Assembly: GCA_964410635.1 (NCBI GenBank)
Contig: CAYPHX010000001.1
Span: 486-64,485, forward strand
Origin: an uncultured Erysipelothrix sp.
GTDB lineage: Bacteria > Bacillota_I > Bacilli_A > Erysipelotrichales > Erysipelotrichaceae
Direction: 5' to 3'
Length of the DNA stretch: 64,000 nucleotides
Shown here one piece after another: positions 52,409-57,991 of this stretch. The notes beneath the pieces were generated by a model, which did no database searches, was not told the DNA's origin, and saw only the letters and a program-made list of their open reading frames with translations. The first letter of the stretch is position 1; each line of letters begins with the position of its first letter. The translations under genes were made by a program, and so were the position numbers.

Positions 52409-53567
52409 CACTTAACAACTTACTGGCTCGCTTGAAGACAGAGCCAAATTCTTCATTGAGTTCTGATATCATAGAATCAGTATCTAAATCTTTACTGACT
52501 GTAAATAAGTCTAATTGTTCTTCAATATTTTCTGTTTCTTTAAGATTTGCAAGACCAACAGAAATAAAGTTAACACCTGAGTGATCATCGGCCTCAAATT
52601 CTGCATAAAGGCTCATGACACGTTCTAATATTTCATCTTGATTGTTTAAGTATTTATCTAATGTAATGGATCGAGCATGGGTTTTCATATCTTCAAATCT
52701 TATAGAGAATTGAATAGTTTTACCCATTAACTGACTTGCTTTAGCGCGTCTTTCTAACTCTTTAATCTCATGTAATATCTTTTCACGTAGTTCATCATAA
52801 TCATAGATTGCTTGAGCAAAAGTTTGTGATTGGCCAATCGATTTAGTACTGTTACTTAGATCTAATTGATTGGATCCTCTACCATTTGCATAATCTATAA
52901 ATACTTGGGCTCTATTACCCAAAATAACTCGTAATTGATCAAAAGATACATTGTTTAAATCACCAATAGTATGGACATTTAATGCCTTTAATCTTGGGAC
53001 TGTCTTCTTCCCTATTCCATGCATTTCTTCAATTGGCAGTGGCCAAAGTTTACTTTCAACTTCTCTAATTCGTAAAACAGAGATTCCCAATGGTTTTTCC
53101 ATGTCTGATGCCATTTTAGCCAAGAATTTATTGGGTGCGACACCAATACTGACAGGCAATCTTAACTCTTCTAAGATTGTCTTTTGAATTGATGTTGCTA
53201 GATCTAAAGGTCTTTTATACTCTTTTATCGCATCTGTTACATCAACATACACTTCATCTATAGATGCTTGTTGCACCATAGGTGAATAAGATCTTATGAT
53301 TTCAACAAAGGCTTCAGATAACTCTGTGTAGAGTTCAAAATCAAGCTCAACAACAACTAAGTCAGGACACAATCTTTTGGCATGTGATAGTGGCATTGCA
53401 CTGCCTACACCAAATTTTCTTGCTTCATAAGATGCAGTTGTGACAACAGATCCTTGAACATCACGACAAACAACTACCGGTTTACCTTCAAGTGAAGGGT
53501 CTTCTATTAAATGCGCACTTGCAAAAAAGGCGTTAATATCTATATGAAATATAACTCTTGCAGACAT
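52401..53567 (-). CDS. dinB: DNA polymerase IV
   Basis: HIDINAFFAS, SYEARKFGV, SIDE, QLDLF clamp motif. Confidence 0.97.
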   Translation of the reverse strand: MSARVIFHIDINAFFASAHLIEDPSLEGKPVVVCRDVQGSVVTTASYEARKFGVGSAMPLSHAKRLCPDLVVVELDFELYTELSEAFVEIIRSYSPMVQQASIDEVYVDVTDAIKEYKRPLDLATSIQKTILEELRLPVSIGVAPNKFLAKMASDMEKPLGISVLRIREVESKLWPLPIEEMHGIGKKTVPRLKALNVHTIGDLNNVSFDQLRVILGNRAQVFIDYANGRGSNQLDLSNSTKSIGQSQTFAQAIYDYDELREKILHEIKELERRAKASQLMGKTIQFSIRFEDMKTHARSITLDKYLNNQDEILERVMSLYAEFEADDHSGVNFISVGLANLKETENIEEQLDLFTVSKDLDTDSMISELNEEFGSVFKRASKLLSDE

Positions 53568-55204
53568 TAAACAGCCTTCCCTTCTTCGATTAATTTTCTA
53601 GCCGCATTAATGGAGTCTTCATTTAAGATTCCCATCATCATAATGGCTAAATGTGCTTCTTTTTCTTCATCACTCATCAGATTTACATGTGTAATACTTG
53701 TATTGTCTGTATCTTCTTTTGAGATAAGGTAATGGTCTGTCGCACATACTGCAACTGCAGGTAAATGTGTAATTGATATGACTTGCTTTTCTTTAGAGAT
53801 TTGACGCATTTTCTGTCCAATCTTAAAGGCAACAGTTCCACTGACTCCTGTATCAATCTCATCAAAAATGAGTGTAGAGATACTTTGTACTTTTGAAAAT
53901 ACAACCTTAAGTCCCAACATAACGCGACTCAATTCACCACCTGATGCTACTTTAGATAATTCAGCTACAGGCATTCCTTTATTCATACTAATCATAAACT
54001 GAACCTGGTCAAAGCCCTCTTTATTAAAGTCTATTTGATTAAAATGAACTTCAAATACAGCATTATTGAGTGATAGGTCTTTTAATTCTTTAATGATGTA
54101 TTTCTCTAAAAGTTTTGCTGCATCTTGTCTTTGTTGACTCAATTTATTTGCATCATTTTCTAAGCGTAATTGAATCTCTTTTAACTCATTTTGAAGGTCT
54201 GTCTTAAAGTCTTCATAATGCTCTGCTTTTCTTATTTGTGTTTCTAACTCTTCTTTTTTACTTAATAAGCTCTCAATCGTACCGTGTTTACGTATCATCT
54301 TTGTATACTGCAGCATACGTTTATTCATACGCTCAAATTCATACTCATCAAAGATAAAATTATCATTCATGTGTGAAATTTCATGTGAAATATCTTCAAA
54401 TTGGTAGTATAAATCATGATACTGTTCTTTAAGCGATTCAATATTATCAAATAAAGGGAGTAGTTCATGTAAGCTACCCATAATATTTAAATCACGACTG
54501 AGTGCAGACTCGATTGTATTGAGGTCTTGTTTATTTCGTTCGTAGTTTTCTAAATGTTTCAGTGATTCATCTAATGAATCATAATCTTCTTGAGTTGGAT
54601 TCAGTGTTTCTATATCTTTAAGTAAAAACTTAGAGAAAGCCAGTGCATCTGCATCAAGAACACTACTGTTGAGTAAATCTATTTCTTTTAATTTATTTGT
54701 ATATTCTTTATAAGTTTCTTTATATTGATTTAAATAAGTATCGTCATTCATATAAGATTGAAGTAAATTTAAATGATTACGCGCACTCAATAAAGCATGT
54801 GTGTCATGTTGTGAGTGTATATCTATAACAAGTGACAGTACTGATCTAATTTCTTTTAATGTGACTACACGTCGATTTATCCTAGCAATACTGCGTCCAC
54901 TACGATTCATTTCACGTGAGAATACAGTGACATCTTCTGAATCGATGTCAAAACCCATCTCTTGAAGTAACTGTGTTACAGGATCTGACTTTTTAAACAT
55001 GAAGACTGCTTCTACAATACTTGCATCACCGTGTAGACCCACTATTTGTGATGTGCTACGCTCACCGGATACAAAGTTTAAGGCATCAACAAACAGGGAC
55101 TTCCCTGCTCCTGTTTCACCTGTAAACACGTTAAAATGATCTGAGAGTGTCAGATTTATTTCTTCTATTAAAATAAAGTTTTTAATATATAAATTCAGTA
55201 ACAT
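53567..55204 (-). CDS. recN: DNA repair protein RecN
   Basis: TGETGAGKS, ASGGELSR, FDEIDTGVSG. Confidence 0.98.
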   Translation of the reverse strand: MLLNLYIKNFILIEEINLTLSDHFNVFTGETGAGKSLFVDALNFVSGERSTSQIVGLHGDASIVEAVFMFKKSDPVTQLLQEMGFDIDSEDVTVFSREMNRSGRSIARINRRVVTLKEIRSVLSLVIDIHSQHDTHALLSARNHLNLLQSYMNDDTYLNQYKETYKEYTNKLKEIDLLNSSVLDADALAFSKFLLKDIETLNPTQEDYDSLDESLKHLENYERNKQDLNTIESALSRDLNIMGSLHELLPLFDNIESLKEQYHDLYYQFEDISHEISHMNDNFIFDEYEFERMNKRMLQYTKMIRKHGTIESLLSKKEELETQIRKAEHYEDFKTDLQNELKEIQLRLENDANKLSQQRQDAAKLLEKYIIKELKDLSLNNAVFEVHFNQIDFNKEGFDQVQFMISMNKGMPVAELSKVASGGELSRVMLGLKVVFSKVQSISTLIFDEIDTGVSGTVAFKIGQKMRQISKEKQVISITHLPAVAVCATDHYLISKEDTDNTSITHVNLMSDEEKEAHLAIMMMGILNEDSINAARKLIEEGKAV

Positions 55205-55211
55205 AAAACAC

Positions 55212-56894
55212 CTACTCTACTACTTTTAATATATGTTCAACATTTAAGTGAAACTTCATTTTTAAATCTTTTGCATGCAGATTTAAATCAGTATGCATTA
55301 AATTATAATTATATAGTCTGTGCGTTTTAATTAGAGGTTTGAGTACCCCATATAAAGTATGATAAATATCCTCTAAATCATAAATAATTACAGGTAAATT
55401 CATTTCATTGATCAAATCGATGAAATCTCTATCAATATTAAATACGGAGCGTGTATTCACAAGCCAATATGGTAAGTTGTTTACTTCTATCTTATTACTG
55501 ACTGCTTCAGCTGTGGGTCCATAAGTAAAAATAACTGCTTTTGGATTGTTTGTTAGTTTATTAATATCCCATGTTAGGACTGTGTTTTCATTATTCTCTT
55601 GATAGGCTTCTGATACATCAGGAATACGTAAAATACTTAAGTCAAAATCTTTTTGAGCAAGTATTGCATTTAATAGACCAACAGATTCATTAATATTCTT
55701 ACCCATAAATATATTTGAAGTAATTAATGCACTGTGGCCAACATCAAAGATTCCTTGTTTAACTCTGTTTCCTGAATCATTTAAGCCAGAATCACGAAGA
55801 ATAAAAAGAATATTCTTAGCTGTACTTAATTGTTCTTCAACAAGTGGAATAACGTGTTTAAATTGATAGGAACTAACCACAAAAACTACGCGCTTATTCA
55901 GCATCAATAAACCTTTCGCAAAATCAACCAGGGATTGAATTGTACCAGTACTGACATAGTAGTGATCTGGAAAATTAATTGCGAATTCTGCAAGATGTTC
56001 CTTATTTTTTGAAATATCTGCACAAACAAGCACATCATCATATTGACTTAATGTTCTGTCTACTGCGTCTAAGTAAGAAACATAGTGCTCTGGTAAACCC
56101 ACTTCAGTTTTAAATGATGGTAGTTTAAGGTTTTGTAGTGATTGTAAGTTAGAATTAATGTGAACTAGATGCAACCCTTTAGCGCCTTTAACATTCTTAA
56201 AAACCCTAAGTTGCTCATTGAGGCCGTCCCCTTTTAAAGGTCCATGGTAATCAAATCCAAATTGTGTAAAGATGGATGGTTCCACAAGAACCCCTTTAAA
56301 ACCCTCTTTTACTTTACTGAGGGTTTCTAAAATTGGCATTCCTACTGGATTATTTAGTATGTGTTTTAAATCTTTTTTGAAGCTGGTATATGTATTGCTC
56401 ATTCTTAAGGAGTTAATCCATAAGTTTGTTGCAGGTTTCTCATTAAAGAGTGATCCCATTGGATCAAAAAAGATAATACTCATATTTGGTTTATGGTTGT
56501 TAATTTGAATTAGAGATTCAAAACTTTTACCATAATTCATAGAAAAGTCGTCCATAAGGACCACTGTATCCATATTACTTTCTAGCGCAATGGCCAATGA
56601 CACACCCAAAACATCACTGGGATGATTTGAAAGGTAAACATGTGTCAAACTCACATTAAAATGTGATTCCAAGGCTTCTTGTACATAGTATTTTACTTCA
56701 TTGTCTATAATAAGATTCGTATGATTAAAATCATGGGTGCTATTTAAACTCATGATTGTTTCTAAGGAAGAAAGACTTTGAATTACAGTATCTTTACTTA
56801 GTTTAGGATCTTTGATAAATTGTTTAGACAACTGATCCACTAAGTCTTGTTTTTCTGTGTAATCTATCGTACTTAATATTTGATATAAAGACAT
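55212..56894 (-). CDS. Degenerate DXP synthase homologue (probable pseudoenzyme)
   Basis: In the dxs position after ispA; FTQFGFDYHGP and KQGIFD remain but the ThDP and catalytic motifs are substituted. Confidence 0.8.
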   Translation of the reverse strand: MSLYQILSTIDYTEKQDLVDQLSKQFIKDPKLSKDTVIQSLSSLETIMSLNSTHDFNHTNLIIDNEVKYYVQEALESHFNVSLTHVYLSNHPSDVLGVSLAIALESNMDTVVLMDDFSMNYGKSFESLIQINNHKPNMSIIFFDPMGSLFNEKPATNLWINSLRMSNTYTSFKKDLKHILNNPVGMPILETLSKVKEGFKGVLVEPSIFTQFGFDYHGPLKGDGLNEQLRVFKNVKGAKGLHLVHINSNLQSLQNLKLPSFKTEVGLPEHYVSYLDAVDRTLSQYDDVLVCADISKNKEHLAEFAINFPDHYYVSTGTIQSLVDFAKGLLMLNKRVVFVVSSYQFKHVIPLVEEQLSTAKNILFILRDSGLNDSGNRVKQGIFDVGHSALITSNIFMGKNINESVGLLNAILAQKDFDLSILRIPDVSEAYQENNENTVLTWDINKLTNNPKAVIFTYGPTAEAVSNKIEVNNLPYWLVNTRSVFNIDRDFIDLINEMNLPVIIYDLEDIYHTLYGVLKPLIKTHRLYNYNLMHTDLNLHAKDLKMKFHLNVEHILKVVE

Positions 56895-56963
56895 AGACTT
56901 CTCCTCTCAATGATAACTCTTACATTATTATATCATATGTACAGCTTTGTTTTAAATACTAAA

Positions 56964-57788
56964 CTATAAACTACGATTCTGTAATGATTTAATATAATCA
57001 CTTAGAAAAGTTGTTTCAAAACCAAATGAATCAATGATGTTTTGGCTTTCTATAAAGAGTGTTTCAACGACTTCTTTAGACTCTTCTACACTTAAATAAG
57101 TAGTGATTGTTGAAATATCTCGAGCAGTATCTGAGTCTACAGATTTACCTATGACTGTTGCATCTGATGTAACTTCAAAAAGATCATCTTGAAATTGAAA
57201 TAAGAGTCCCAGATTTTCACCTAATGTTTGCGCATCTTGTAATTTATCTTCTTTATCTGCAAGGTAGACAGCCATTTCAAATGCAGCAGAAAATAGTGCA
57301 CCTGTTTTTAAACGGTAGCACTCTTTTAAGTCTTCTAACGAAGTAATATTATCCAATATATCAATCTCTTGACCTAAAATCATGCCTCTGGTTCCAGCAT
57401 TTCTTGATAGAACCTCAAAGAAACGATAGTCTAGTTTTGCTTTTGCAAGTAATGAGAAAGCAAGTGTTAAAAGTCCATCTCCTGCTAAGATAGCGATATC
57501 TTCACCAAATACAATGTGATTTGTTGGTTTAAAGCGACGCATCTCATCATTATCTAGCGCAGGTAGATCATCATGGATTAAAGAGTATGTATGAATACAT
57601 TCTAGTGCAGCTGCAGCATAGATTGCACGATCATCTTCTATGTTAAAGTCTTTAAGTAAATGAAACATTAACTGTGGGCGTACACGTTTACCGCCACCAA
57701 GTAATGAGTAAGCCATTGCTTCAGTGACACGTGATGGTAAGTGACTGTTGAGTTCTTGTACAAATAATAGTTCTAATTTTTCAATCAT
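56964..57788 (-). CDS. ispA: Farnesyl diphosphate synthase
   Basis: GGKRVRP, SLIHDDLPALD, LKTGALF, FQFQDD. Confidence 0.96.
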   Translation of the reverse strand: MIEKLELLFVQELNSHLPSRVTEAMAYSLLGGGKRVRPQLMFHLLKDFNIEDDRAIYAAAALECIHTYSLIHDDLPALDNDEMRRFKPTNHIVFGEDIAILAGDGLLTLAFSLLAKAKLDYRFFEVLSRNAGTRGMILGQEIDILDNITSLEDLKECYRLKTGALFSAAFEMAVYLADKEDKLQDAQTLGENLGLLFQFQDDLFEVTSDATVIGKSVDSDTARDISTITTYLSVEESKEVVETLFIESQNIIDSFGFETTFLSDYIKSLQNRSL

Positions 57789-57991
57789 TTTTTATCCTCT
57801 TGGTGTTTAACAACCAGTTCTTTTACGCGGTTTTCATACGCATCTAATTTAATTTGGCATTGTTTTGATAGGGCCAAGCCTTCATCAAATAGTTCAATTG
57901 CTTTATCTAAAGACACAGAATCACTCTCTAGTTCTTGTGAGATTATATTCAGTCTTTGCATTGCTTTTTCAAAATCAAATTCTTTAGTCAT
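57785..57991 (-). CDS. xseB: Exonuclease VII small subunit
   Basis: FEKAMQRL, SLDKAIELFDEG. Confidence 0.96.
   Translation of the reverse strand: MTKEFDFEKAMQRLNIISQELESDSVSLDKAIELFDEGLALSKQCQIKLDAYENRVKELVVKHQEDKK

Follow-up and report, generated by a model that had tools for sequence, protein, structure and literature searches.

A DXS homologue devoid of most catalytic residues is retained under purifying selection at the ispA-recN locus of Erysipelothrix

Analysis of a 64,000-nucleotide stretch of DNA from an uncultured Erysipelothrix sp. (positions 486 to 64,485 of contig CAYPHX010000001.1, assembly GCA_964410635.1; hereafter the window) revealed a DXS-like gene between ispA and recN, whose product we regard, with modest confidence, as a DXS-derived pseudoenzyme kept by selection for a non-catalytic binding or regulatory role. 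The term pseudoenzyme is used here since the protein combines homology to an enzyme family with the loss of key catalytic residues, and is under purifying selection across species. Two results are new: dead copies of dxs occupy the ispA-recN locus of other genera of Erysipelotrichaceae as well, and the DXS-specific mobile insert is the best-conserved stretch of the protein in Erysipelothrix. The literature search retrieved no paper on a stand-alone dead DXS in bacteria or on the Erysipelothrix gene, and nothing relevant on Erysipelothrix in connection with mevalonate or deoxy-xylulose.

The gene is encoded on the minus strand, a detail absent from the preliminary description of this DNA, and the order of genes on that strand is nusB-xseA-xseB-ispA-DXS-like-recN-dinB-xerD-deoB (Table 1). 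The intact frame of 560 amino acids, the ispA-dxs-recN position and the strong Shine-Dalgarno sequence, GAGAGGAG, all claimed in that description, were confirmed. The TATAAT hexamer noted upstream is likewise present, but promoter-like matches of this kind are no commoner in the AT-rich stretch than in shuffled sequences (29 found vs 37 expected). It should also be added that xseB shares 8 nt with the end of xseA and 4 nt with the start of ispA, so that xseA-xseB-ispA appear to be translationally coupled, with the DXS-like gene separated from them by 69 nt.

Table 1. Features of the DXS-like gene, its product and its neighbourhood; positions refer to the window, residue replacements are given in E. 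coli DXS numbering
Feature	Position	Strand	Description
DXS-like gene, putative pseudoenzyme (P0001)	55212..56894	minus	560 aa, ATG start, uninterrupted
Shine-Dalgarno sequence GAGAGGAG	56908-56901	minus	6 nt ahead of the ATG of the DXS-like gene
Promoter-like TTTAAA-18-TG-n-TATAAT	56927..56956	minus	in the 69-nt spacer between ispA and the DXS-like gene; TG-extended TATAAT at 56932-56927, TTTAAA 18 nt upstream of it; pattern match only
ispA (polyprenyl synthetase)	56964..57788	minus	upstream neighbour; Pfam PF00348, E 2e-48
xseB	57785..57991	minus	68 aa; related contigs have a PF02609 gene in this position
recN	53567..55204	minus	starts 7 nt past the stop of the DXS-like gene; Pfam SMC_N/AAA_23
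Degenerate ThDP/Mg2+ motif, residues 115-145	56460..56552	minus	DDF...FDP replaces GDG...NDN; 2O1S alignment
DXS-specific mobile insert equivalent, residues 147-206	56277..56456	minus	corresponds to E. coli ~183-240 by 2O1S alignment
Domain-I core block, residues 207-250	56145..56276	minus	F209..Y216-x-G218..G222..H245; best-kept DXS piece in every degenerate lineage
G151-D152-G153 replaced by D115-D116-F117			HMMER alignment to 2O1S
N179-D180-N181 replaced by F143-D144-P145			N181 is the Mg ligand; HMMER alignment to 2O1S
A369-E370-Q371-H372 replaced by T-I-Q-S			HMMER alignment to 2O1S
E370 replaced by Ile319			ThDP-activating Glu; relatives have T, Y, V or P
R420 replaced by Asp			
D427 replaced by Gly, H431 replaced by Lys			
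R478 replaced by Asp			
H49 replaced by Thr, H80 replaced by Val			histidines of GHLG and DVGHQ

The closest solved relative of the protein is E. coli DXS 2O1S (HMMER alignment, E 4.5e-19). The alignments to this structure and to intact DXS bear out the earlier reading of the sequence, both in the conversion of GDG...NDN to DDF...FDP with the loss of GHLG, DVGHQ, IAEQH and DGxTH, and in the survival of DXS scaffold segments, which were located at residues 207-219 (SIFTQFGFDYHGP) and 380-384 (QGIFD). The statement that every catalytic motif has been lost was a slight overstatement: E370, N181, H49, H80, R420, D427, H431 and R478 have all been replaced (Table 1), whereas the equivalents of H122, D152 and D180 alone survive in the window's protein, the second of them being either D or N among relatives. 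Across the Erysipelothrix orthologues, the alignments show the former active-site positions to vary freely. The Pfam domain DXP_synthase_N was matched only in part (residues 87-246, E 1e-21), and against the TIGR00204 dxs equivalog model the protein scored 91.4 bits, below the curated cut-off of 465.95, compared to 600-770 bits for intact DXS of the same family. From the sequence, we infer that the protein is dead for DXP synthesis.

DXP is used outside isoprenoid synthesis too, and this would favour a genuine DXS of strongly diverged sequence, its DXP being destined for thiamin or pyridoxal. We consider such an activity scarcely credible, in view of the replacement of all eight residues listed above. 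As for annotation, public records of orthologues (WP_166065206.1, QIK70055.1 and NLL75177.1, from Erysipelothrix sp.) bear the name DXS in GenBank, whereas RefSeq, with WP_166065206.1, is more cautious and speaks only of an 'N-terminal domain-containing protein', which likewise tells against a true DXS. Furthermore, no credible ThiG was found in the genome, although this search carries little information, the sole match being a partial one of 24 bits to a Pfam model that also rings in 14 of 14 controls.

The overall architecture of the protein is, by contrast with its active site, predicted to be well preserved. The AlphaFold2 model, calculated from an alignment of 84 sequences, reached a pLDDT of 88.2 and a pTM of 0.81, and a Foldseek search returned TM-scores of 0.70-0.79 to DXPS structures (E 1e-27 to 1e-21) at sequence identities of 15-17% in the structural alignments; among the PDB matches listed (ranks 1-50), all were DXPS or DXPS-like structures. 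As modelled, the three-domain DXS fold is intact; the chemistry is presumably gone. With bacterial DXS the protein has in common the fold, the locus after ispA, the DXS-specific insert and the F..G.xYxGP.DG..H block. Unlike DXS, it resides in a genome without the MEP pathway and has lost E370, the substrate residues and the ThDP/Mg motif. It also falls short of DXS in length by approximately 60 residues, and in the clade of the window the N-terminal TGR...loop has been deleted. Degeneration is graded within Erysipelothrix (alignment A5; L052-L054, L059): in the 592-aa proteins of the E. rhusiopathiae type, the FDGGKQ..VHKILTGR block at the N-terminus and a loop of ~14 residues after it are still present, both of which were lost in the clade of the window.

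The suggestion that the genome lacks the MEP pathway was well founded. In the genome of the window (1.54 Mb, 86.75% complete), HMG-CoA reductase is present and none of dxr, ispG and ispH was found. Across the genus as delimited in GTDB, dxr was detected in 0 of 28 genomes, 17 of which are at least 90% complete and several closed, and HMG-CoA reductase, the marker of the mevalonate route, in 26 of them. The two genomes with neither an HMG-CoA reductase match nor dxr (G168 and G173, 97% and 90% complete) probably reflect assembly gaps. Erysipelothrix hence relies on the mevalonate route for its isoprenoids. Elsewhere in the family, dxr and an intact dxs are the norm, with dxr present in 129 of the 151 sampled genomes, and intact dxs likewise in 129 of 151. 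A few genomes (G019, G034/G110, G065, G113 and G095; loci L082-L084 and L086-L088) carry a fully intact dxs with no dxr detected, for which assembly gaps, the use of DXP for cofactors only, or a DXR-like alternative enzyme are possible causes.

The DXS-like gene is under strong purifying selection. An uninterrupted orthologue is present in all 28 Erysipelothrix genomes, always in the order xseA-xseB-ispA-X-recN, with open frames of ~560-600 codons in genomes of 33-36% GC. The dN/dS values, a check that had been proposed at the outset, were 0.03-0.07 (Nei-Gojobori NG86, eight close pairs), far from a value near 1; the pairs were taken from elsewhere in the genus, because comparison of the window with its nearest relatives (76% and 66% identity) gives a saturated dS. 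For the same eight pairs, the neighbouring genes gave 0.05-0.14 (xseA), 0.03-0.08 (ispA) and 0.04-0.10 (recN), values that the DXS-like gene matches or undercuts.

These data bear on the view that the gene is a decaying relic whose frame stays open by chance, or is kept merely for the expression signals of recN in its DNA. The proximity of recN (Table 1), whose ribosome-binding region falls inside the last codons of the DXS-like gene, would be in line with it, as would the observation that at long range this gene diverges fastest in the block (26-37% identity vs 38-47% for xseA and recN). Within the subclade to which the window belongs, however, its identity is 76%, equal to that of ispA (76%) and above those of xseA (60%) and recN (67%), and the low dN/dS points to constraint on the amino acids and not just on DNA. 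Because of these dN/dS and identity figures, neither decay nor a purely DNA-level constraint fits, the open frames in 28 of 28 genomes of such GC content speak against them as well, and we strongly disfavour this explanation as very improbable.

Purifying selection over the whole length might also be expected if the protein were still an enzyme, one with a new ThDP-free chemistry or with non-canonical cofactor binding. Invariant motifs absent from DXS, such as NYGK(T/S)(F/Y)E, LKLPSFKTE and YDLEDxHHTLY, characterise the clade, and K262, Y271, D279, W442, N472, Y505 and K545 are conserved genus-wide, which would be compatible with such an activity. On the other hand, several of the clade-specific motifs dissolve in the E. 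rhusiopathiae-type proteins, the positions of the former active site are not conserved in the genus, Pfam and NCBIfam detect no domain beyond DXS, and no new motif is common to the different dead lineages described below. We therefore consider a new enzymatic function unlikely, and return to the non-catalytic role favoured above.

To see where conservation is concentrated, 47 non-redundant sequences from the genus and from metagenomes were compared. The most conserved stretch comprises residues ~120-220, and R164, S166, Y169, K173, K177, L180, N182, P187, L192, K200, E205, F209, Y216 and G218 are identical in at least 95% of the sequences; within the insert, R164, S166, Y169, K173, K177, N182, P187, K200 and E205 are invariant genus-wide. 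The best-conserved stretch in Erysipelothrix, residues ~147-222, coincides with the mobile insert characteristic of DXS. AlphaFold2 models the insert as three helices at low confidence (pLDDT 48-67 over residues 150-210), and the corresponding segment of the E. coli enzyme (~183-240) is reportedly missing from the 2O1S crystal. The R, Y, K, L and K positions of the insert are at least 85% conserved in 26 intact DXS and were found in 71-88 of 99 intact representatives, a sample biased towards those intact DXS that are most like the query profile. Replacement of the equivalent loop by Gly6 in the enzymes of P. aeruginosa (paDXPS 206-245) and K. pneumoniae (kpDXPS 197-240) left the kinetics comparable, and the authors of that study describe the loop as poorly conserved (PMC10504544). 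The dead Erysipelothrix protein thus keeps best the piece of DXS that is dispensable for catalysis.

Degenerate copies are not confined to Erysipelothrix. A profile search of 1.8 billion representatives yielded ~30 further full-length DXS-like proteins with most catalytic residues lost, and whole-genome searches placed dead copies in at least seven other genera of Erysipelotrichaceae, designated here g3, g16, g17, g51, g52, g65 and g73. Wherever the flanks are visible, three metagenomic contigs included, the degenerate copy adjoins ispA/recN. In three genomes of g16, as well as in g51 and g65, a second, intact dxs resides elsewhere in the same genome (in g16 directly beside dxr), and therefore dead copies persist even alongside the pathway and a live DXS. 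These copies share with the window's protein the locus, full length, the loss of catalytic residues and the retention of residues 207-250. Unlike among themselves, they are only 20-30% identical to it and have suffered different losses: g16 keeps NDN, and g17 loses the insert. Some of them co-exist with a live dxs.

The strength of selection was not uniform among these lineages. dN/dS of the dead copies amounted to 0.09 for the g17 pair and to 0.21-0.22, near saturation, in g65 and g16. Since some dead lineages evolve fast, with only 27% identity within genus g51, constraint differs between them.

The phylogeny of intact and degenerate forms makes several independent origins of dead copies likely, a reading that follows from the tree topology together with locus and taxonomy, as the AU test of all degenerate forms as a single clade gave p 0.07 and a single clade was not rejected. 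In the maximum-likelihood tree, the dead clade of g52 has as its sister an intact DXS that a congeneric genome carries at the ispA locus (SH-aLRT 98), and intact sequences surround the dead clade of g3/g65 (SH-aLRT 99-100). The intact copies that g16 and g51 carry elsewhere in the genome cluster with outgroup DXS, which suggests that they were acquired. The g16 dxs adjoining dxr (G015:C2 at L108, G096:C58 and G149:C45) also groups with DXS from outside the family. This suggests that the g16 dxs-dxr pair was horizontally acquired, freeing the copy at the ispA locus to degenerate.

Several further sequences of the family should be mentioned. The matches of seemingly intermediate score G091, G045, G133_C53, G123, G004 and G053 (E 1e-52 to 1e-58) were considered as transitional forms and ruled out, being fully intact DXS. 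A third class consists of DXS-like ORFs of ~600 aa (G010:C2, G112:C5, G140:C107, G065:C11 and G076:C1), which match TIGR00204 mainly over positions 230-615 and attain the cut-off score only if adjacent pieces in frame are counted in. In addition, an S4/FtsJ (TlyA-like) methyltransferase gene is situated between the dead DXS and recN on one contig (L102, contig of P0034; 5677-6414), as in Bacillus; in Erysipelothrix, there is no gene between the DXS-like gene and recN, and argR is absent too.

To compare what the dead lineages have in common, we scored, region by region, the DXS-conserved columns kept by each of ten lineages. Retention of the core block 207-250 was 0.45-1.00 in all ten. For the insert, it was 0.65 in Erysipelothrix and 0.63-0.78 in four other lineages, with lower values for the g3/g65 clade (0.35) and for g17 (0.06). 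Given this uneven retention, one shared function based on the insert is not general. The reason for which dead copies are kept may differ from one lineage to another.

The closest known analogue of the Erysipelothrix protein is found in plants. Tomato SlDXS3, a member of plant class III, is a DXS paralogue without activity or the required structural features that has nevertheless been retained (PMC10675008), and the retention of an inactive-looking DXS homologue is what the two cases share. Plant DXS3 differs in being a paralogue of eukaryotes, which have active DXS1/2 besides it, whereas the dead copy in question arose within Erysipelotrichaceae and is the sole copy in Erysipelothrix, where the pathway is absent. 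In our tree, which was calculated without plant sequences, the clade of the window falls among bacterial members of the same family, and membership in the plant clade is not expected.

Taken together, the following explanation is proposed. The DXS-like protein has kept the predicted three-domain fold of DXS and would have lost canonical binding of ThDP/Mg2+, activation of the cofactor and the holding of pyruvate and GAP, so that presumably no DXP is made; DXP would be superfluous for isoprenoids in Erysipelothrix because the mevalonate route is used. Strong purifying selection nevertheless retains the protein at the ancestral ispA-dxs-recN locus, where it may act as a non-catalytic binding or regulatory protein. 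Its functional surface probably includes the basic helical insert (~147-206) and the core block that follows, as these are the parts best shared with live DXS.

The preliminary description had argued for selection for a new, non-enzymatic role. The open frames, the low dN/dS, the failure to find dxr in the genus and the detection of HMG-CoA reductase in most of its genomes support selection for a function apart from the synthesis of DXP. This role was more likely inherited, as a second, catalysis-independent function of DXS in the family, than newly invented. This preference arises from the conservation of the insert in live DXS in spite of its dispensability in vitro, and from the persistence of dead copies at the same locus, in some cases beside a live dxs. 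In its broadest form, which we advance tentatively as a possibility, DXS of this family would have such a second function, residing at least partly in the mobile insert, that has repeatedly kept dead copies at ispA-recN. These copies may have been retained both where the MEP pathway was lost, as in Erysipelothrix, and where a second, live dxs arrived (g16, g51 and g65).

The nature of the binding partner can be narrowed down in one specific version of the non-catalytic reading, in which the protein senses isoprenoid diphosphates (IPP/DMAPP/FPP) or regulates prenyl-chain synthesis. The dead copy would then keep the ligand site through which DXS is feedback-regulated, and signal the supply of precursors to enzymes such as IspA. 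DXS is known to be under feedback regulation by IPP/DMAPP, and isothermal titration calorimetry of a plant DXS showed that these bind away from the ThDP site, without competition with ThDP (PMC10203381). In the same work, the site was docked to the dimer interface, in the vicinity of EcDXS H122, Q397, R398 and F435, and the window's protein keeps H91 (equivalent to H122), K346 (to R398) and F383 (to F435); moreover, the DXS-like gene follows ispA in every genome examined. The site, however, is a docking prediction, and its residues are kept in the subclade of the window but not genus-wide: proteins of the E. rhusiopathiae type have GGKPGE/GGDIGE in place of the H91 segment and vary at K346. 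The ispA-dxs order represents ancestral synteny and gives no evidence of a functional link. Overall, we find a sensor of this kind rather improbable. For a similar reason the idea of a partner of IspA or RecN, put forward in the preliminary description, carries little weight, as the synteny behind it dates back to the ancestry of Firmicutes; prediction of a complex of the DXS-like protein (A5) with IspA (A4) gave no answer (score 0.00) and speaks neither for nor against binding.

As regards the organism, annotation under the name DXS would wrongly suggest that Erysipelothrix, including the animal pathogen E. rhusiopathiae, has an MEP pathway or offers DXS as a drug target. The genus-wide dN/dS of ~0.05, along with dead copies beside live DXS, points to a non-catalytic role for a well-studied antibiotic target. 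The insert, which can be removed with no harm to catalysis in vitro and is yet the best-kept part of the dead Erysipelothrix protein, offers a handle on its purpose. Should the second-function reading prove true, conservation of the DXS insert would gain a testable explanation, and DXS itself would be a moonlighting protein.
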